Shown here in pieces: positions 1,586 to 9,587 of a stretch of 29,875 nt of DNA. The notes beneath the pieces were generated by a model. That model had not been told where the DNA came from and ran no database searches. It saw nothing but the letters and a program-made list of their open reading frames with translations. This stretch comes from a virus (Duplodnaviria; Caudoviricetes): positions 1 through 29,875 of the IMG/VR virus record IMGVR_UViG_3300025115_000041; one strand, 5' to 3'. The translations under genes were made by a program, and so were the position numbers. Position 1 is the first letter of the stretch. Every line of letters begins with the position of its first letter.

Positions 1586-2515
1586 TCAGCGGGCGACGCC
1601 TCGCGTCCCTTCATAGATGGCTTGGCTGATACTGCCGCTTCGATAGGCTTTTTCAAGGGCATCATTTAATCCTTTCCTGACTTCATTGTGTTCCACGCTT
1701 GGCAATTTGTCAAGTCCGCTTACAACGGCAGCATTACCCAAACCGCGGCTGTTGTCGATGACCATCATGTGGAATCGGTGGTCGTCGCCGTACTTTTCTT
1801 GCAGCCGACCCATCACATCACGCGAACCTATGTGGGTTTTGAAATGCTCGTCAATCGGCACGGTGCGACCCGTGCCCATTTCGGCTTCCATGCGGCTGGC
1901 GCGTTTTAGGGCGCCGTTTTCCATGGCTTCCACGGGGTCGCGGTACGTGTACACGATGCCGACCTTGCGACCGGCTTTCAGGGCTTGCTGGATTTTTTTG
2001 TCCGCGGATTCAAACGTGTTCATGTTTGTGTCGTACTTGATTTCCGCGTTTTGAATGTGATCCGATACCTTTAGGGCTTCTTGCAAGCCAGTTGTTTTAC
2101 CCGCCCCCGTTCCACCAGCGGTAAACAACACCAGGTTGTCTTTACCCGATGGCGTATCTTGCGACAATTTTTCGGCGTACATCTGTTTGACAAACGCCGA
2201 TGACGGTTCGTGAACGTCTGCCGACCTGGTGCGATCTGCGCGGTATTCAGGCGACATTTCGCGGGCGTCATCCGTGTTTAGGATGCGTCCACCGTCAGTT
2301 GATGGCAAAGCCGCGTATTCGCTGGCCAGGCCGGTGTAGTCATTCGCCAGGCGATCAAAATACGCCTGTTCAATCGGGTTGGCCGACTGACCAGGAACCT
2401 GGGGCAGCGTAGGCTGCGGGACAAGCGAAGCCAGGCTGGCCTGGGTAGGCACGGCGCCCTGGGGCGCTGCCTGTTGTTGACCCGCCGCTGCCAGTTGCGA
2501 CAGCGGGATGGCCAT
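1586..2515 (-). CDS. Zeta-toxin-like P-loop kinase/ATPase
   Basis: VLFTAGGTGAGKTT Walker A; YDTN; ALKAGRKVGIVY; RA..TGRTVP; IDNS motifs typical of the zeta toxin family; TAAATG junction with the upstream gene. Confidence 0.8.
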   Translation of the reverse strand: MAIPLSQLAAAGQQQAAPQGAVPTQASLASLVPQPTLPQVPGQSANPIEQAYFDRLANDYTGLASEYAALPSTDGGRILNTDDAREMSPEYRADRTRSADVHEPSSAFVKQMYAEKLSQDTPSGKDNLVLFTAGGTGAGKTTGLQEALKVSDHIQNAEIKYDTNMNTFESADKKIQQALKAGRKVGIVYTYRDPVEAMENGALKRASRMEAEMGTGRTVPIDEHFKTHIGSRDVMGRLQEKYGDDHRFHMMVIDNSRGLGNAAVVSGLDKLPSVEHNEVRKGLNDALEKAYRSGSISQAIYEGTRGVAR

Positions 2516-2737
2516 TTACTTTTGGTACGACTTGCGACCGTGGGTGTAGCAAACGCCTTTGCTGCGGCCACCGTCAAATTTGTGGTCAGAGCCAGTTGCA
2601 TCGGCTTTGCCCATGGCGACACCGTTCACAACACGTTCACGGCGTTCGCCGGTGTTGTCGCTGGCAGTTGCGCCAGCGGGCGCCTTGGCGCTGGTGCCGT
2701 AGCCCTTGGGCTGCATTTCGGCGTTATCTTTGTTCAT
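2516..2737 (-). CDS. Hypothetical phage protein
   Basis: 73 aa; AAAGGA RBS; abuts the next gene. Confidence 0.75.
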   Translation of the reverse strand: MNKDNAEMQPKGYGTSAKAPAGATASDNTGERRERVVNGVAMGKADATGSDHKFDGGRSKGVCYTHGRKSYQK

Positions 2738-2748
2738 GGCTTTTCCTT

Positions 2749-3108
2749 TCAGTTTAGGAATTTCAAACGATACAACGTTTTATCAATCAACGAAACGATT
2801 TCGTCAATGATATTCTGAAGTTCAGAATCTTGTGGCAAATCTTCCCTGGCTTCGTCCACAAACTTTTGCAACGATTCCAAATACTTCACGGGGTCTTTGG
2901 CGTTGTGGAATTCTTCAGGGTACTTTTTGATTTTTTGGTATCGGCCCTGGAAGGCTTCGGCGTAACCGTCTGCCAGGTCAATAATTTCGACGTAGTATTT
3001 CCCCAGCGCCTTGTGTACCGAATACGAATCGGTGGACAGGTGCATGAAATGTGTCACCGTGCTGCTGTGCAGTAATGTGGCAATAAATTCGGCTGCGTCG
3101 TTTTCCAT
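2749..3108 (-). CDS. Ferritin/Dps-like four-helix protein (DUF5856-like)
   Basis: Start MENDAA at 3108; HFMHL.T.SYS.HKAL..YY..I.DL.D..AE..QG.Y and ELQNIIDEI..LI.KT.Y.L motifs. Confidence 0.85.
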   Translation of the reverse strand: MENDAAEFIATLLHSSTVTHFMHLSTDSYSVHKALGKYYVEIIDLADGYAEAFQGRYQKIKKYPEEFHNAKDPVKYLESLQKFVDEAREDLPQDSELQNIIDEIVSLIDKTLYRLKFLN

Positions 3109-3114
3109 GAGGCG

Positions 3115-3120
3115 ATGATA
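3115..3120 (-). promoter_or_regulatory. Putative -10 element TATCAT, 6 nt before the ATG (possible leaderless transcript)
   Basis: Minus strand reads TATCAT-cgcctc-ATG with no Shine-Dalgarno; no clear -35. Confidence 0.4.
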
Positions 3121-3124
3121 ATGG

Positions 3125-3151
3125 AAAAAAAGGGGGCTTACTAGCCCCCTT
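3125..3151 (-). terminator. Rho-independent terminator after the Nin region
   Basis: AAGGGGGCT-agta-AGCCCCCTT stem running into a T7 tract. Confidence 0.8.
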
Positions 3152-3515
3152 GAAAGTGGCTTTGGCAACTGTCAACAAGCCCGCACAATTGTTCCTCGGT
3201 TGGGATGGGAATGTCAACAGGCCATTGACCGGATTCGACCAGGGCGGCCACCGTTTTCATGTGGGCAATCGTCCAGGCTTGCTGCCTTTCCCGTTTTGAC
3301 CATTTGCTGCCCTGGTCAATGTCGTGGTGACAGGTCATGCAAAGCGCGGCCACCAGGTTGTCGTCGGCTTTGATCCCGCGGCCCTTGCCACCACCCCAAT
3401 TCGTGTGCGCCGCCTGGACAAAATGCGGGCTGCCGCAAAACTGACAATCCAGGCTGGCCACCAGGCGCAACAACTTTTTGCTGCGGATGTAGGCGTGTTT
3501 TGGGTAGGCGGTCAT
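3141..3515 (-). CDS. Zn-binding nuclease-like protein (DUF1364/DUF968-like Nin-region protein)
   Basis: Start at 3515 by ATGA overlap; CQFCG..QAAH..KGRGIKADD..ALCxxCH motifs. Confidence 0.8.
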   Translation of the reverse strand: MTAYPKHAYIRSKKLLRLVASLDCQFCGSPHFVQAAHTNWGGGKGRGIKADDNLVAALCMTCHHDIDQGSKWSKRERQQAWTIAHMKTVAALVESGQWPVDIPIPTEEQLCGLVDSCQSHFQGG

Positions 3516-3913
3516 ATTTCGATACCCTTTTCGGTTGCCCAAGCGTACAGCCATTCGATAAATTCGCTGGCGTCTTCCACGGTGAATTTGTGGCTTTGCC
3601 ACCCCAACTGGACGACCCTTTCGCCGTCCAGGCTGGGCGCCACGCGGCCAATCTTGCGTCCGGTTTCGTGCGCCCATTGGTCAATCAACAGGCGTTTCCA
3701 GTCGTCGTCAGTCCAGGTTGATCCAGCCTGGCGGGTGGCTGCGCCAACCATGCCGATCATGGCGTGAAACTTGGCGTTTTGATCCAGGCTGCGGGTGGCT
3801 TTTTTGATTTCCAATCGCATCCGTTGACCGGCTGCCAGGCTGGTTTTGATATCCGGCCACAACCGTTCCATCAAAATTTTGGCCTGTTCGGGTGTGTGCA
3901 GTTCAAAAATCAT
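3512..3913 (-). CDS. ninB: NinB/Orf-family recombination protein
   Basis: TRSLDQNAKFHAM, DDWK and PSLDG motifs; ATGA overlaps at both ends. Confidence 0.85.
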   Translation of the reverse strand: MIFELHTPEQAKILMERLWPDIKTSLAAGQRMRLEIKKATRSLDQNAKFHAMIGMVGAATRQAGSTWTDDDWKRLLIDQWAHETGRKIGRVAPSLDGERVVQLGWQSHKFTVEDASEFIEWLYAWATEKGIEI

Positions 3914-4509: not shown

Positions 4510-4913
4510 TTCGGCATCCTCATTTGCTGGGTCAGTTCGCGAAATTTGGCCAAGGCTTCCTGTTTGGCTTTTTCGGTCGCAATCTTTTCGTGGACAGTCT
4601 GCTGCCTGGTTATCAGGGTGTGCGGCTTGTCAGGAATGCGCGGGGCATCGTTCAGCAGTTTGGCAAACTGCAATGCTGACGGCGGGCGGTCGGGGTTCAT
4701 GTGTTTCAGGGCGTAATCCAGTTTTGGCCGGTATGTCAGGCCGCGCCCGCATTCCTCTGCCCATACCTGTCGAACCATGGTGTGATCCACACCTTCCCAA
4801 TGCCGAACAAACACAGCGCCGTAGATGGCGCCCATCCTGGCAAAGATGTAATCCAAGCCCTGTTCGACCTGGCAAAAATCCTGTTCGCGCCATTCACTTG
4901 AGTAATTTGACAT
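4506..4913 (-). CDS. Putative helicase loader (lambda P-like)
   Basis: Follows the initiator; IF.RM.AIYG..F..HW..V..VWAEE..YAL..RPP..QF pattern. Confidence 0.65.
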   Translation of the reverse strand: MSNYSSEWREQDFCQVEQGLDYIFARMGAIYGAVFVRHWEGVDHTMVRQVWAEECGRGLTYRPKLDYALKHMNPDRPPSALQFAKLLNDAPRIPDKPHTLITRQQTVHEKIATEKAKQEALAKFRELTQQMRMPK

Positions 4914-5610
4914 CGTGGCCACCCCCTATCAATCCGCGGGTCAATCCCGCCATGGTGTCGCGGTTGCGTTCACCAACGTTTTTGTTTTGCTTGTCAGCAA
5001 CCCATTCAGCCTTAAACCCGCGCCAGCCACGCGCGACACATTCCGACAGCGCGTTATCCAGCGACCAACCCGCTTTTTGGGCTTCCTGGGCGATTCTTTT
5101 GACCACGGTGGGGGTCACTATTGCCTTGTTGGTTTTTCGGGCCTGTAGGAACGATTCCCAGGTTTCTGGTTGAACACCATCAGGACAGGTCAATTTTTCT
5201 TTTTTTACTTTTTCTTTTTCTTTATTGGTTATTGGGTATTGGGTATTGGTTAGGGTTTTTTTGGGTTCGGTTTGGGTTAGCCCTGGGTTACCCATGGGTT
5301 TTTTCGGGCGCCCACCCTTGATTCCATTGGCTTTTTGCTTGGCAAGGAACGTGTAGTATTTTTCGATTTCCGCGTCTGCACGACGGTTTCTGTATCCTTC
5401 GGGGGTCAGTTCAAAGAATTCGATCAACACATTTGACACCGCTTCGGAACCCACCCGTATCCGACGGGAAACCCGTGGGATATCGTTGGGTATTGGTGAT
5501 TCCGTGTCGTAGTACAAATCCAGCATCCGACGATAGGCAAGGTCTTCATCTGCCGTCAAATGGGCGGTGTGTTTGGCGTAGTCGCCAACGTGAAACTGGT
5601 AGAAATTCAT
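4894..5610 (-). CDS. Replication initiator, YdaU/DUF1376 family
   Basis: MNFYQFHVGDYAKHTAHLT..EDLAYRRMLDLYYDTE N-terminus; NG.KGGRP; GWRGFKAEW C-terminus; internal iterons. Confidence 0.88.
   Translation of the reverse strand: MNFYQFHVGDYAKHTAHLTADEDLAYRRMLDLYYDTESPIPNDIPRVSRRIRVGSEAVSNVLIEFFELTPEGYRNRRADAEIEKYYTFLAKQKANGIKGGRPKKPMGNPGLTQTEPKKTLTNTQYPITNKEKEKVKKEKLTCPDGVQPETWESFLQARKTNKAIVTPTVVKRIAQEAQKAGWSLDNALSECVARGWRGFKAEWVADKQNKNVGERNRDTMAGLTRGLIGGGHDVKLLK
5191..5303. repeat. Putative replication origin: iterons plus AT-rich tract
   Basis: TGGGTT at 5262, 5273, 5284 and 5295 (11-bp period); four tandem TATTGGK at 5223-5250; T-rich tract 5191-5222; inside the initiator gene as in lambdoid ori. 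Confidence 0.75.
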
Positions 5611-5634
5611 GCCGCACCCTTTCATCACACCCAG

Positions 5635-5714: not shown

Positions 5715-5876
5715 CTATTTTGTCCGAAACCAGGAAGGCCGCAAAGCCTTCAGTTGCCACAAACGCGCCTGTGGTACGGCGTCACCCCATTGGCTGATGG
5801 CCTGTCGCGTGATCCCTAGCAACTTAGCCAGGGCCATGGCGCTGCCCGCTTTTTCGATTGCTTGTGCTTTGTCCAT
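5715..5876 (-). CDS. cro: Cro-like HTH regulator (53 aa, absent from the ORF track)
   Basis: Hand translation MDKAQAIEKAGSAMALAKLLGITRQAISQWGDAVPQARLWQLKALRPSWFRTK; first gene of the replication operon. Confidence 0.88.
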   Translation of the reverse strand: MDKAQAIEKAGSAMALAKLLGITRQAISQWGDAVPQARLWQLKALRPSWFRTK

Positions 5877-5882
5877 GTTCGC

Positions 5883-5911
5883 ATGGTAAGCCACCTTTCA
5901 AGTCTTGTCAA
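5883..5911 (-). promoter_or_regulatory. Sigma70 promoter for the cro/replication operon
   Basis: TTGACA-17 bp-TACCAT; cro ATG 6 nt downstream. Confidence 0.8.
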
Positions 5912-5956
5912 CACCATCAATACCCGACAAATGTGAGTGGGCTTTACAAATAGTTG

Positions 5957-5985
5957 TTGACATGGCGTGTAAGTGGGCTTAACAT
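5957..5985 (+). promoter_or_regulatory. Sigma70 early promoter P1
   Basis: TTGACA-17 bp-TAACAT with GTAAG-tggg-CTTAA palindrome overlapping the -10. Confidence 0.8.
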
Positions 5986-6005
5986 GGGAACCGTAGTGAT
6001 TGATA

Positions 6006-6038: not shown

Positions 6039-6626
6039 ATGTCCAAGCAATATCTCTCTTGTGCCGAAACCGCCAAACTGGTTCGTGCGGCTCTCAAGGA
6101 ATCTTTTCCTGGCGTTAAGTTCAGCGTTCGTTCTAGCGTGTACGCCGGTGGCGCCAGCATCAACATCGAATACACCGACGGCCCCAGCGCCAGCCAAGTC
6201 GAAGGCATCGCCAAGGCATTCCAGGGCGCATACTTTGACGGAATGACCGATTACAAAGGCCGCAACTACAACACCCTGGACGGCGAACAAGTCAGGTTCG
6301 GTGCTGACTTCATTTTTGTAAAACGCAACTTCACCGCGCCAACTTTGACTGGCATCGTTGTTCAGGTCTGCAATTACTACGGTTTCGACAACGAAATTTT
6401 GATCGACGCTGGCGGCCAATATTTTGGCGCATACGTCAAAGAAGTTGGCCCCAACGCCGACAGCGAAGCCCGCGGGTTCAGCAAGTACGACATTGAACGT
6501 TTGATCCGCGAAGCGGCTGGCAAGTACAGCATGGATGACGCAGCCGAAAGCAAAACCTTGGCCCGCGTTGCCTTCCTGGGCGACGACGGTTACGGCTACG
6601 GCGCTGTTGGCCGGATTGCTGCGTAA
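6039..6626 (+). CDS. LPD29 (large polyvalent protein-associated domain 29) protein
   Basis: TAKLVRAALK.SFPGVKFSVRS..Y.GG.SI.I.YTDGP...V......FQG..FDGMTD motif; TAAGGAG RBS. Confidence 0.82.
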   Translation: MSKQYLSCAETAKLVRAALKESFPGVKFSVRSSVYAGGASINIEYTDGPSASQVEGIAKAFQGAYFDGMTDYKGRNYNTLDGEQVRFGADFIFVKRNFTAPTLTGIVVQVCNYYGFDNEILIDAGGQYFGAYVKEVGPNADSEARGFSKYDIERLIREAAGKYSMDDAAESKTLARVAFLGDDGYGYGAVGRIAA

Positions 6627-6748: not shown

Positions 6749-6931
6749 ATGTTTGCAGATAAGTATGAATTAGAAACCTGGGCAGGGCCGTCAATGGCCA
6801 CCATCAGGGCAAGGCAGCGGGCTGCGTGTGGCGGCGGCTGCAAGTGTGGAAAGTTGCGCGATCCCGTCACCAAGTCCAACGGGGTTCGCACCTGGCTGTC
6901 GTGTTTGCGGTGCCTTGGCACCATCGCCTAG
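6749..6931 (+). CDS. Small Cys-rich (zinc-ribbon-like) protein, 3' end altered by cassette insertion
   Basis: CGGGCKC...CLRC; its stop TAG lies inside the attC spacer. Confidence 0.6.
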   Translation: MFADKYELETWAGPSMATIRARQRAACGGGCKCGKLRDPVTKSNGVRTWLSCLRCLGTIA

Positions 6932-6973
6932 CTCACCGGCGCCGAAGGCGTCCGGTGCAGCGCAGTGTTAGGC
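6919..6973 (-). repeat. attC site of cassette B (55 bp) with a non-canonical R' (G|ATGGTG)
   Basis: R'' GCCTAAC, spacer ACTGC, L'' GCTGCACC, GGACGCC-TTC-GGCGCC, L' GGTGAGC, spacer TAGGC, then GATGGTG; two extrahelical bases on the L'' arm. Confidence 0.85.
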
Positions 6974-6994
6974 GTCAAGTTGAACGGAGGTTAT

Positions 6995-7225
6995 ATGGAC
7001 ACAAACAGACGATGGACACAGTTCGCAGCCGATGCCGAGGTTGACAGATTCGGCACCGCAAGACTATGCGCTGCGCACAACAGTCTGCGCGATGAAGTCG
7101 AAAAGCTGCGCAGGGTCGCCGAAGCCGCTGCGCGCTCTGTGACGCAGCCCGCATGGGCCGGAGTGTGCGACGAGGACATTGAACTGGAGTCCGCGTTGCG
7201 GGCGGCTGGGCTTCTTGACGCCTAA
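6995..7225 (+). CDS. Cassette B hypothetical protein (76 aa)
   Basis: GGAGG RBS at 6986; stop TAA is part of the core site GCCTAAC. Confidence 0.75.
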   Translation: MDTNRRWTQFAADAEVDRFGTARLCAAHNSLRDEVEKLRRVAEAAARSVTQPAWAGVCDEDIELESALRAAGLLDA

Positions 7226-7282
7226 CGCAGAGCTAAGGGGCCGGCCGCTTGCGGACGGTCCCGCTTAAGCGCCGGGTTAGGC
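7220..7282 (-). repeat. attC site of cassette A (63 bp), complete
   Basis: R'' GCCTAAC, spacer CCGGC, L'' GCTTAAGC, GGGACCGTCCGC-AA-GCGGCCGGCC, L' CCTTAGC, spacer TCTGC, R' GTTAGGC. Confidence 0.92.
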
Positions 7283-7296
7283 GCGGAGGATTGATG

Positions 7297-7680
7297 ATGG
7301 AACTAGGCGCAATAGAGGAAGTGAAAGAGATTGCCAGGCAGATCGAATGTCGGCTGATACCGCCACCGAACAAGGCGCAGTCACTGGTAATTATTCGACA
7401 GATGATCCGCATGGCAGAAAAGATCGAGTCGCTTGAAGCCAAGCTATTCCATGCCGAAGCGGAGCGCGACGAAAACCGCGCCGAGATTGGCAGGCTGCGC
7501 GACGAACTGCAAAGGATCGCTGACCCGATGAGTTTCCGGCACGAAGGGACAAGCCTTTCGTTGTGCCGGAAATACGAGGACATAGCGGCAGACGCTTTGC
7601 GAAAAGTCGGCTCTGACAAGACGGCAGATGTAGCGCCTAACAGACAGTTGACAGATAGCGTCAAGGGGGCTTACAATTAA
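7297..7680 (+). CDS. Cassette A hypothetical coiled-coil protein; reads out of the cassette into phage DNA
   Basis: GGAGGA RBS at 7285 next to attC R''; central heptad-rich segment; no stop before the 7640/7641 junction. Confidence 0.75.
   Translation: MELGAIEEVKEIARQIECRLIPPPNKAQSLVIIRQMIRMAEKIESLEAKLFHAEAERDENRAEIGRLRDELQRIADPMSFRHEGTSLSLCRKYEDIAADALRKVGSDKTADVAPNRQLTDSVKGAYN
7635..7653 (-). other. Array-proximal crossover site with attI/attG-like simple-site geometry
   Basis: TGTCAAC-TGTCT-G|TTAGGC (AAC-N5-GTT) with no attC hairpin upstream. Confidence 0.6.
7648..7677 (+). promoter_or_regulatory. Sigma70 early promoter P2
   Basis: TTGACA-18 bp-TACAAT with TCAAG-gggg-CTTAC palindrome overlapping the -10. 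Confidence 0.75.
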
Positions 7681-7683
7681 ATC

Positions 7684-7703
7684 ACGCCGGAAACGGTCTT
7701 TTA
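7684..7703 (+). promoter_or_regulatory. Leader motif copy 2
   Basis: ACG-CCG-GAAA-CGG-TCTTTTA. Confidence 0.5.
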
Positions 7704-8051: not shown

Positions 8052-8705
8052 ATGACCCAACAACAACATTACGAAACCATGCAACGTCAAGAGGAGTATG
8101 AGGAAATGACAACGTTCAACAAAGTCGCTGCGGCCTTGGTCAAGGCCCAAAAAGAATTCGGCCCTGCGCTGAAATCCAGCACCAACCCGCATTTCAAATC
8201 ACGCTACGCCGACCTGGCCGCGTGTGTTGAAGCGGTGGTGGACGCTCTCAACAACAACGGCATCGCGTTGACGCAGCGCGTCAGCCCGTCCGACAGCGGC
8301 GTGATCGTCGAAACCGTGTTTATTCACGAATCCGGCGAAATCATCAATTGCGGCCAGTTGCACGTACCGGCCACCAAACAGGACGCCCAGGGTTACGGAT
8401 CAGCGTTGACATACGCCCGCCGTTACTCGTTGATGGCCGCCTGTGGTATTGCACCGGAAGACGACGACGGCAACGCAGCCACAAAACGCCCGTCAGCGCC
8501 AGCGCAGCCTATTCCTGATATTACGGATCATCTGTCAGCCATTGATGGTGCCGCCAATAGCGACGAATTAACCAAGGTGTATGCCGCGGCCTACGACGCT
8601 TGCCAGGGCAATCAGCAACTTCAGGCCAAAGTGATTGCAGCCAAGAAAGCCCGCATTGAACGCGCCAAGAAAGAAAAACAATCGAAAGGAACCACAAATG
8701 AGTGA
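8052..8705 (+). CDS. erf: ERF-family ssDNA annealing protein
   Basis: NPHFKSRYADL, HESGE and GSALTYARRYSL..ACGIAPEDDDG motifs; alternative start at 8106. Confidence 0.93.
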   Translation: MTQQQHYETMQRQEEYEEMTTFNKVAAALVKAQKEFGPALKSSTNPHFKSRYADLAACVEAVVDALNNNGIALTQRVSPSDSGVIVETVFIHESGEIINCGQLHVPATKQDAQGYGSALTYARRYSLMAACGIAPEDDDGNAATKRPSAPAQPIPDITDHLSAIDGAANSDELTKVYAAAYDACQGNQQLQAKVIAAKKARIERAKKEKQSKGTTNE

Positions 8706-9324
8706 CATGGAACAACGCACCGACGACTGGTACGCGGCCCGCCTGGGCAAAGTCACGGCCAGCAGCCTGTACAAAGTCCTAGCCAAGACCAAGACCGGCT
8801 ACGGTGCCGACCGCGGCAATTACATGACCCAACTGGTGTTGGAACTCGTGACCCAATCTAAGGCCGATTCCTACACCAACGCGGCCATGCAATGGGGCAT
8901 CGACCAGGAACCATTTGCCAGGGCAGCCTATGAAGCCGCCAAGGGCGTTTTGGTAGAGGAAGTGGCGTTCGTACAGCACCCGACCATCGCCATGGCTGGT
9001 GCCTCGCCTGACGGCTTGGTGGGCGACGACGGCATGGTGGAAATCAAATGCCCCGACAGCAAGACAGCCTTGGAATGCTGGCTGTCCGACAGCCCCGTGG
9101 AAGGCAAGTATTTCGCGCAAATGCAATGGCAAATGCGCTGCGCCGACCGCGCCTGGTGCGACTACGTTGTATTCGACCCGCGGATGCCCGCCAAGGCCCA
9201 ACTGTTTGTCACCCGCGTTCAGCGTGACAACGAATGGTTGGCCATCACGGAAGCGGAAGTCGTCAAGTTTTTGGCTGAAGTCGATGCCAAGGTCGCAGCA
9301 CTCAAAAAAATCATCGGAGAATAA
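8698..9324 (+). CDS. YqaJ/lambda-exonuclease family protein
   Basis: QRTDDWYAARLGKVTAS, MQWG..QE, GASPDGL, EIKCP and QMQWQM motifs; AAAGGA RBS. Confidence 0.93.
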   Translation: MSDMEQRTDDWYAARLGKVTASSLYKVLAKTKTGYGADRGNYMTQLVLELVTQSKADSYTNAAMQWGIDQEPFARAAYEAAKGVLVEEVAFVQHPTIAMAGASPDGLVGDDGMVEIKCPDSKTALECWLSDSPVEGKYFAQMQWQMRCADRAWCDYVVFDPRMPAKAQLFVTRVQRDNEWLAITEAEVVKFLAEVDAKVAALKKIIGE

Positions 9325-9326
9325 TC

Positions 9327-9587
9327 ATGTCGAAAGTCGTAAAAGAAATTAGTTGCATTGTCGGTCAATACACCAACGCCCAGGGCGAACAGAAAAACCG
9401 CTATCAGCGGATTGGTTCGGTCATCAATACCAAAAACGGGGAAATGCTCAAACTTGACGTTATCCCGCTAAAGGATGGCGGCTGGGACGGCTGGGCTTAC
9501 ATGAACGACCCCAAACCCAGGGAAGACGCGCCGCCGCGCCCCGCGCCCCGCAGTTTTCCTGACGACGATTTACCTGACTTTTTCTAG
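9327..9587 (+). CDS. Small SSB-like protein
   Basis: Follows the recombinase/exonuclease pair; Y....GE.KNRY..IG pattern; acidic-aromatic tail DDDLPDFF. Confidence 0.6.
   Translation: MSKVVKEISCIVGQYTNAQGEQKNRYQRIGSVINTKNGEMLKLDVIPLKDGGWDGWAYMNDPKPREDAPPRPAPRSFPDDDLPDFF

Follow-up and report, generated by a model that had tools for sequence, protein, structure and literature searches.

Can an integron cassette carry its gene on the wrong strand and still be of use to the genome that holds it? In the accessible text of PMC5027507, the attC bottom strand is the one recombined by IntI, and an integron is taken to work only if gene and attC point the same way. The locus described here raises the question directly: two attC-bounded genes in the early operon of a tailed phage both read on the attC bottom strand. 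An earlier note on this DNA had proposed that the two inverted genes face a phage promoter and hint at a phage-specialised pool of inverted cassettes. The window, meaning the whole stretch of DNA analysed, is an entire contig of 29,875 bases.

The host phage and its early operon

The contig encodes major head, scaffold and head closure proteins, an endolysin and NinB, together with an O-like replication gene (4894-5628), a cro-like gene and the ERF and YqaJ recombination genes. The sequencing run that best matches it, X1, is a freshwater metagenome and may be its source. Another contig, of 34.6 kb, encodes the same ORF A and ORF B proteins, and consequently about 5 kb of the phage genome may lie outside the window. 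The features of the region are listed below; the arrow marks the crossover, and R1 is the covariance model described in the next section.

5715-5876, minus strand: cro-like gene (P22_Cro match)
5911-5883, minus strand: divergent promoter opposite P1, separating the leftward cro-replication arm from the rightward early operon
5957-5985, plus strand: P1, a predicted sigma70-type promoter (10/12 consensus) heading the rightward early operon
6039-6626, plus strand: LPD29-domain gene, first in the operon (PF18847, E 6e-25)
6749-6931, plus strand: ORF C, a resident phage gene truncated by the insertion, 60 aa (70 aa in L489 and L492)
6923-6925, minus strand: left junction, where the top strand has G↓AT in place of G↓TT; the crossover separates 6924 from 6925
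6925-6973, minus strand (top strand): attC of cassette A; L' 6931-6937, R'' 6967-6973, GAA loop 6944-6946, extra bases 6951 and 6958; R1 33.4 bits, fold z -4.77
6986-6990, plus strand: ribosome-binding site (RBS) of ORF A, GGAGG
6995-7225, plus strand: ORF A, 76 aa, helical, without Pfam or PHROG family
7220-7282, minus strand (top strand): attC of cassette B; R' 7220-7226, L' 7232-7238, L'' arm 7263-7270 with extra base 7267, R'' 7276-7282; R1 59.2 bits
7285-7290, plus strand: RBS of ORF B, GGAGGA
7297-7680, plus strand: ORF B, 127 aa (128 from the ATG at 7294), helical, likely a coiled coil
7635-7641, minus strand: right junction, formed by cassette B's core site, past which no attC body follows
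7648-7677, plus strand: P2, a promoter immediately right of the insertion (11/12 consensus), kept in empty-site relatives
8052-9324: ERF and YqaJ genes, just downstream of the cassette array

The promoter P1 is present where the earlier note had placed it, and the operon that it heads is presumably the counterpart of the lambdoid PL operon. Both divergent promoters are contained in a long inverted repeat (5877-5913 and 5955-5991), and the stretch that separates them carries no repressor gene. Repeats of 17 bases, related to each other, occur at 5932 and 5968, and a promoter-leader block is copied at 6003 and 7681. Within the O-like gene, short direct repeats at 5225-5290 are likely to mark the replication origin.

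Polarity of the two attC sites

Polarity was assigned with R1, a covariance model of 40 bacterial attC top strands, each oriented by its own canonical ORF, which avoids circularity. In the window, R1 returned 59.2 bits (E 1e-13) at 7220-7282 and 33.4 bits (E 1e-6) at 6919-6973, both on the minus strand, against a best plus-strand score of 12.9 bits, and no further match fell below E 1. The minus strand is therefore the attC top strand and the plus strand the bottom strand, the same polarity that the earlier note had read from the extra L'' base. Both sites show the R''/R' core boxes (RYYYAAC, GTTRRRY), the L''/L' boxes and the central spacers of an attC, and the polarity is also marked by extrahelical bases in the L'' arms at 6958 and 6951 and at 7267. 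The extra bases themselves are atypical, being A and C on the bottom strand vs G in 157 of 180 viral sites, and this may lower the recombination activity of both attC sites.

Plus-strand DNA folding of 6920-6980 gave a z score of -4.77, with none of 200 shuffles equally good, and that of 7214-7289 gave -2.27 (6 of 200 shuffles equally good). The R' of cassette A is the G↓AT target when the DNA is linear, and it pairs in full with the cassette's own core site in a modelled circle. Damage to the left attC by a 7-base loss was considered and rejected: by comparison with locus L030 and by the R1 alignment, the site is complete to the crossover, and its odd bases belong to the insertion target, not to the attC. 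Our own attC detector called no site in six block-shuffled windows. It is imperfect, missing the AT-rich sites of PH101 and all sites of MW202573, and it made two false calls among 80 relatives of the locus, both outside the interval between the LPD29 and ERF genes. The Rfam search of the window returned one chance-level match, elsewhere.

Insertion into an empty site

The 80 relatives were retrieved with the LPD29 gene as anchor. Two of them, L489 and L492, carry the empty site: their ORF C joins P2 directly, is 70 aa long and ends at the stop now used by ORF B. The array at 6925-7640 is therefore a 716-base insertion that truncates ORF C. LPD29 and ERF were both present in 63 of the 80 relatives, and in none of these did the interval between the two genes give a detected attC. 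As a separate observation, the LPD29-to-ERF interval is widely variable across these relatives (L480-L559), from 564 to 1983 bases. The variation comes from modules that all open with nearly the same promoter block, and it represents a further route to mosaicism, one that involves no attC.

The left junction is, as judged from its letters, a GWT-type secondary (attG-like) target, GWT being the attG target consensus in the accessible text of 10.1101/2022.09.11.507474. The target is unrelated to attI or attC and is empty in relatives. One codon is left over: the rejoined target halves are one codon longer than L489 and L492, so that either the junction is not base-exact or the parent allele was different. 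The earlier note had set the left boundary at 6967; it lies at 6925, and the first attC belongs to cassette A. The GAT target and the empty-site relatives had escaped that note, as had the phage-borne integrase clade described below.

At the right junction no attI of the phage-integron type was found. A remnant attI was considered for this position and rejected, as the sequence is without the clade motif and is a promoter in relatives. The window gave no IntI match at E 1e-20, and there is no attI on the contig. The locus is not a complete integron, its right flank being a promoter conserved in the empty relatives; with two attC sites and no IntI in the window, beyond which about 5 kb of genome possibly lies, it classes as a CALIN of two cassettes, located at an attG-like site within the early operon of the phage.

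The assembly was checked against contigs from other sequencing runs. An independent low-depth contig from run X3 is identical over 6810-7058, and the left junction is therefore not an assembly error. The contigs of run X1 break within the second attC, with depths of 19 and 18.2 on the two sides; because these depths are equal and relatives link the flanks, a chimera is unlikely. One X1 contig matches 7602-7641 and then continues into a different attC-like body, and run X4 contains a relative contig with 306 letters vs 1063 in the window. Among the sequencing-run contigs listed, none has a joint skipping exactly one cassette. The runs listed as matching the window include no RNA run, which bears on expression in neither direction.

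The cassette genes read on the attC bottom strand

Cassette A spans 6925-7225 (301 bp) and cassette B 7226-7640 (415 bp). Read on the bottom strand, each unit starts with the C of AA↓C, continues through the hairpin, the RBS and the gene, and ends at the next AA. The ends are self-complementary over 13 bp in cassette A and 9 bp in cassette B, compared with 8 and 8 for the crossed pairs. With one ORF and one attC each, G↓TT bounds, complementary ends and occurrence in different contexts, both units are gene cassettes; they are not canonical ones, in which the ORF lies on the attC top strand, ends at R'' and can be expressed from Pc. The two RBSs that the earlier note had seen just inside R'' (GGAGG at 6986, GGAGGA at 7285) are present in the sequence. 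Its placement of the ORF B stop within the core site needs correction: ORF A is the gene that stops there (TAA at 7223-7225), while ORF B crosses the core site at 7635-7641 and uses a TAA at 7678-7680, that is, the former tail and stop of ORF C.

Minus-strand ORFs of 62 and 143 aa also exist, and if they were the true genes, the cassettes would be ordinary and the plus ORFs their shadows. Purines at the first codon position amount to 0.68 and 0.66 in ORF A and ORF B, similar to the known genes of the phage (0.67-0.69), and to 0.48 and 0.47 in the two minus ORFs. The minus ORFs have no coding bias or family match and overlap the attC sites. When examined as the possible conserved genes, they proved not to be conserved: each of their matches at other loci is an antisense shadow, cast either by the plus motif or by the attC. 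The plus ORFs have RBSs and homologues, six besides itself for ORF A (72-80%) and three besides itself for ORF B. It is thus extremely improbable that the minus ORFs are the genes, and the assignment of the real ORFs to the plus strand made in the earlier note stands.

Five of the six ORF A homologues end in Pro-Asn, followed by variable, unrelated tails, and the ORF B homologue P0002 (89%) diverges directly after the Pro-Asn encoded by the core site. Such stereotyped Pro-Asn-led tails are a possible protein-level marker of inverted cassettes. In P0002, P0003 and the ORFs of locus L314, many cassette genes are without their own stop and continue into whichever attC or attI comes next. In 29 loci, partial relatives of ORF A are found as ordinary genes of phage-like operons in which no attC was detected, which suggests that the cargo is drawn from the phage gene pool. 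The earlier note had also asked whether homologues sit in ordinary chromosomal integrons in standard orientation. No homologue in a canonical integron was found, the full-length homologues having come without DNA context.

Searches of Pfam, PHROG and the ESM Atlas gave no function for ORF A or ORF B, the nearest Atlas clusters being unnamed small proteins. No relatives of ORF B were found in IMG/VR, and blastn of 6900-7700 against 50,697 named phage records returned two weak unrelated matches. Judged by their position and by the cargo of the family, the two products are likely accessory early proteins.

Gene orientation in phages and bacteria

The comparison of phage and bacterial orientation proposed in the earlier note was carried out and gave the predicted outcome. 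The first attC pattern, drawn from the window's sites, returned 63 viral loci and 126 bacterial or archaeal loci, the bacterial scan covering 12 of 64 genome-collection parts. To be scorable, a distinct site needed 250 or more bases on its cassette side (54 of 57 viral, 126 of 132 bacterial), and the window's own contig (L385) was excluded from the counts. A site was scored as inverted when a bottom-strand ORF of at least 30 aa, led by a Shine-Dalgarno (SD) motif, started within 60 bases. This was the case for 49 of 54 viral vs 3 of 126 bacterial sites (Fisher p 1.6e-34); a top-strand ORF of at least 80 aa ending at R'' was present at 14 of the 54 viral vs 88 of the 126 bacterial sites. Viral contigs thus show the inverted layout as a rule, bacterial genomes only rarely.

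PHROG families were matched by 16 of 51 viral bottom-strand ORFs vs 0 of 34 top-strand ORFs, the matches being six DNA methyltransferases, one PAPS-reductase-like protein and nine unknown proteins. Together with the survey, this supports the phage-specialised pool of inverted cassettes suggested earlier. A second, aadA7-like pattern, applied to viral sequences only and without a bacterial control, gave 119 viral loci, 98 of them scorable. Of these, 66 were inverted, with an SD-led bottom-strand ORF, and 92 were purine-rich on the bottom strand; 15 were canonical only, and of the two inspected, L191 and L210, the latter has a class 1-like attI next to it. Not all phage cassettes are inverted: TJE1, too, is canonical, including a methyltransferase cassette.

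Two further observations concern the variety of inverted units. At L025, L037, L039, L048, L063, L002 and L051, a sigma70-like promoter, not an RBS, follows R'' on the bottom strand, which makes these loci possible promoter-carrying inverted cassettes. L314 contains phage-integron inverted cassettes at 8088-8651 and 8729-9469; one product is PAPS-reductase-like, and the second we take to be Mom-like.

The pools of viruses and bacteria can also be compared by the attC bodies themselves. A body of 39 bases recurs unchanged in 17 viral loci and, outside these, only in the prophage-like L076/L077. The commonest bacterial body is identical in 24 bacterial and 3 viral loci, which indicates that the two pools touch.

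A phage-borne integron integrase clade

The TIGR02249 cut-off (265 bits) was passed by 2 of the 49 viral records with such sites, most of which are fragments, with scores of 464 and 417 bits. In both positive records, intI follows inverted cassettes on the same strand. The IntI of record G034 aligns with VchIntIA (2A3V) at E 1e-88 over residues 21-330, with no gap at the integron-specific insert, and is by family score and insert an integron integrase. A search with this protein returned 62 viral loci, and 30 viral IntI rows group together in a quick tree (SH-aLRT 97).

Among betaproteobacterial genomes, IntI was found in 196 of 351 and in 166 of 401, the second tally including two unpublished genomes; five of the matches listed exceed 64% identity. 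For a larger tree, the best 58 genome loci were added, restricted to full-length, stop-free rows and leaving out L451, from an unpublished genome. In this tree, like the first a quick or FastTree reconstruction, the phage clade comprises 35 rows, 30 viral and 5 genome-borne (SH-like 95). The five rows above 64% fall inside it, and the 54 other genome IntI rows form its sister. Four of the five genome-borne rows have a phage integrase within about 1 kb downstream, and two also have a CI-like repressor nearby. About 16 further viral IntI rows fall outside the clade. IntI-like viral genes outside the main clade (L356-L369, L373-L377, L379) mostly have no attC detected nearby, and the virus Rctr41k has an IntI-like gene with no attC found by our own detector.

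Within the clade, 37 loci were picked by hand, and 34 of them have an attI-like motif that starts exactly at AA↓C and is followed by an RBS and then intI; the sequence to its left takes 31 different forms. A LexA-like box (CTGT-N8-ACAG-like, within 260 bases upstream of intI) was found in 0 of 37, a search that another LexA motif of the host would escape. In 21 of 40 clade loci, attC sites lie upstream of intI, 39 in total, and for every one of them intI is on the same strand as the attC bottom strand. This strand is purine-rich at 38 of the sites and offers an SD-led start at 25, while 9 also have a top-strand ORF of at least 80 aa.

These data bear on the source of the inverted cassettes. 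They might come from an unsampled bacterial reservoir, for example self-promoted chromosomal arrays, with phages merely filtering those that face a promoter. The bacterial scan took in 12 of 64 parts and held 3 inverted sites of 126, and the attC body common to 24 bacterial loci also occurs in 3 viral ones, as such a reservoir would allow. However, where loci in bacterial assemblies are clearly inverted (L076, L102, L140), the genes around them are of phage type, the cargo matches phage families, partial relatives of ORF A sit in 29 phage-like operons with no detected attC, and the integrase clade is viral or prophage-like. Moreover, a filter acting on expression only would favour canonical cassettes inserted in sense. 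A bacterial reservoir is, on this evidence, quite improbable, and a phage source for the inverted cassettes is preferred.

The unit of movement

Pairs were compared over 180 distinct viral attC sites; they are few and not independent. Where two sites had the downstream gene in common but differed in the upstream one, their attC bodies reached 90% identity in 6 of 8 pairs; where they had the end of the upstream gene in common but differed downstream, 0 of 9 pairs did so. These counts, together with the divergence points after Pro-Asn, indicate a normal crossover and a mobile unit made of attC plus the following gene; on sequence comparison, the attC hairpin travels with the gene downstream of it.

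The same comparison separates recombination by IntI from a second possibility, namely that the attC-derived hairpins are now domesticated spacers or regulatory stems and that the genes between them are swapped by homologous recombination of the phage. The means for this exist: ERF and YqaJ genes lie at 8052-9324, the 39-base body identical in 17 viral loci offers enough homology, and IntI is absent from the contig and from 47 of the 49, mostly fragmentary, viral records. Exchange inside identical bodies, however, would not tie the body to the downstream gene as the pair counts do, and it cannot bring the array into a site without a prior attC. The boundaries at AA↓C and the existence of intact phage-borne IntI genes with attI-like sites are further points against it. 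Domesticated stems are consequently considered improbable, and IntI-mediated movement of attC with its downstream gene is retained.

Proposed mechanism

Taken together, 6925-7640 is an insertion of two inverted cassettes, probably placed at the GAT site by an IntI acting in trans and probably transcribed from P1. An integron integrase supplied in trans would have placed both cassettes at the GAT secondary site of the early operon, where the inserted genes could be read from the phage promoter. In this mechanism IntI would recombine the bottom strand in the normal way, and only the gene would be flipped relative to its attC.

In phage integrons proper, cassettes and intI would form one operon under the phage early promoter. 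Since intI joins the early-promoter operon, the integrase would be made at induction or infection, not under LexA control. New cassettes would land at the promoter-distal end of the operon. Phages without the integrase may gain cassettes in trans at GWT sites, the enzyme coming from a co-infecting phage integron or from the host.

As the reason for the flipped genes, we favour a firewall between host and phage arrays. Host cassettes entering a phage attI would lie antisense and stay silent; in the other direction, Pc would fail to express a phage cassette that had entered the attI of a host. Many host integron cassettes are anti-phage (10.1101/2024.07.02.601686, accessible text), and orientation alone might thus silence phage counter-defence and host defence cargo in each other's arrays. 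The nameable cargo of the family is mostly DNA modification, likely serving counter-restriction. A second benefit may lie in replication: the lagging-strand template favours attC folding (PMC8946536, accessible text), and an origin in the O-like gene at 4894-5628 would put the attC bottom strands on that template.

On a wider scale, we lean, if only a little, towards the view that temperate and lytic phages run an integron system of their own, the mirror image of the bacterial one, with a phage IntI, a compact attI, cassettes of phage genes and an orientation barrier. It would consist of a phage IntI lineage at the end of the early operon and of cassettes that are phage genes with an attC in front, and it would spread to phages lacking the integrase through attG insertion. 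If this is correct, phage genes with and without attC would make the birth of cassettes traceable.

Relation to known systems

The closest published counterparts are the phage CALINs of Qi et al. 2023 (PMC9892861), of which 17 are reported in the accessible text, where IntI1 recombined phage attC sites. The locus resembles them in having two attC sites and no integrase in a phage, and methyltransferase cargo is frequent in the family. That text is silent on bottom-strand genes and calls TJE1 and PH101 typical; the complete integrons that it describes are captured host or class 1 integrons, unlike the phage clade found here. Several of these records were re-read. MW202573 (L479) gives four R1 hits on minus, two strong and two weak, with its genes on plus, and is fully inverted; its published CALIN at 2069-3738 is an inverted array, and the phage that carries it, a P22-like one from freshwater, closely resembles the window in its construction. 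The annotated genes of PH101 lie on the bottom strand of the published attC sites, and extra opposite-strand ORFs may exist. The annotated gene at attC1 of P12002L lies on the bottom strand as well. In P12002L (L477), many intergenic stretches with AAC cores, between 29150 and 41010 on the minus strand, precede methyltransferase and Mom-like genes; they resemble additional attC-like or half sites on the coding strand, besides the two published ones.

Insertion at attG, or SALIN formation (10.1101/2022.09.11.507474), is similar in using a GWT triplet outside an integron, in disrupting a gene and in the nearness of a promoter. In the accessible text, it is shown for bacterial chromosomes and canonical cassettes, free of any bias in strand or transcription, whereas the present insertion is in a phage and has its genes flipped relative to attC. 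Betaproteobacterial sedentary chromosomal integrons have the same attC family, one body being base-identical, and their IntI is the sister clade; in both systems intI lies on the attC bottom strand. Their cassette genes, in contrast to the phage layout, occupy the top strand and point away from intI (at 88 of 126 sites an ORF of at least 80 aa ends at R''), and their attI-intI spacer is longer and AT-rich, while that of the phage clade is short, with an RBS and no LexA-like box. Inverted-integrase integrons (PMC13323075, citing IntegronFinder 2.0) likewise have intI and the cassette genes on one strand, but there, in the accessible text, it is intI that is flipped relative to attC; the phage system keeps the normal relation of intI and attC and flips the cassette genes.

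The literature search, which mostly covered papers outside subscription, found no description of inverted phage cassettes. The accessible parts of PMC13323075, PMC11551772 and PMC8352920 contain nothing on them, and a 2026 review (PMC13492144, accessible text) cites only Qi et al. on the topic of phage integrons.

Implications for phage and integron biology

The family is a variant integron system, real, not due to chance and enriched in phages, in which flipped cargo is combined with a phage integrase clade. Annotation that pairs each gene with the attC downstream of it misassigns inverted cassettes. To our knowledge, how cassettes arise is still an open question, and the family offers a handle on it, because one and the same attC body goes with genes of the top strand when in bacteria and of the bottom strand when in phages, and because partial relatives of ORF A exist without attC. 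For the phages, inverted cassettes provide a precise mechanism for part of the mosaicism of the early region, and they form a screenable library of candidate counter-defence genes. If the rule holds, integrons would extend from a tool of bacterial adaptation and defence to a tool of phages.
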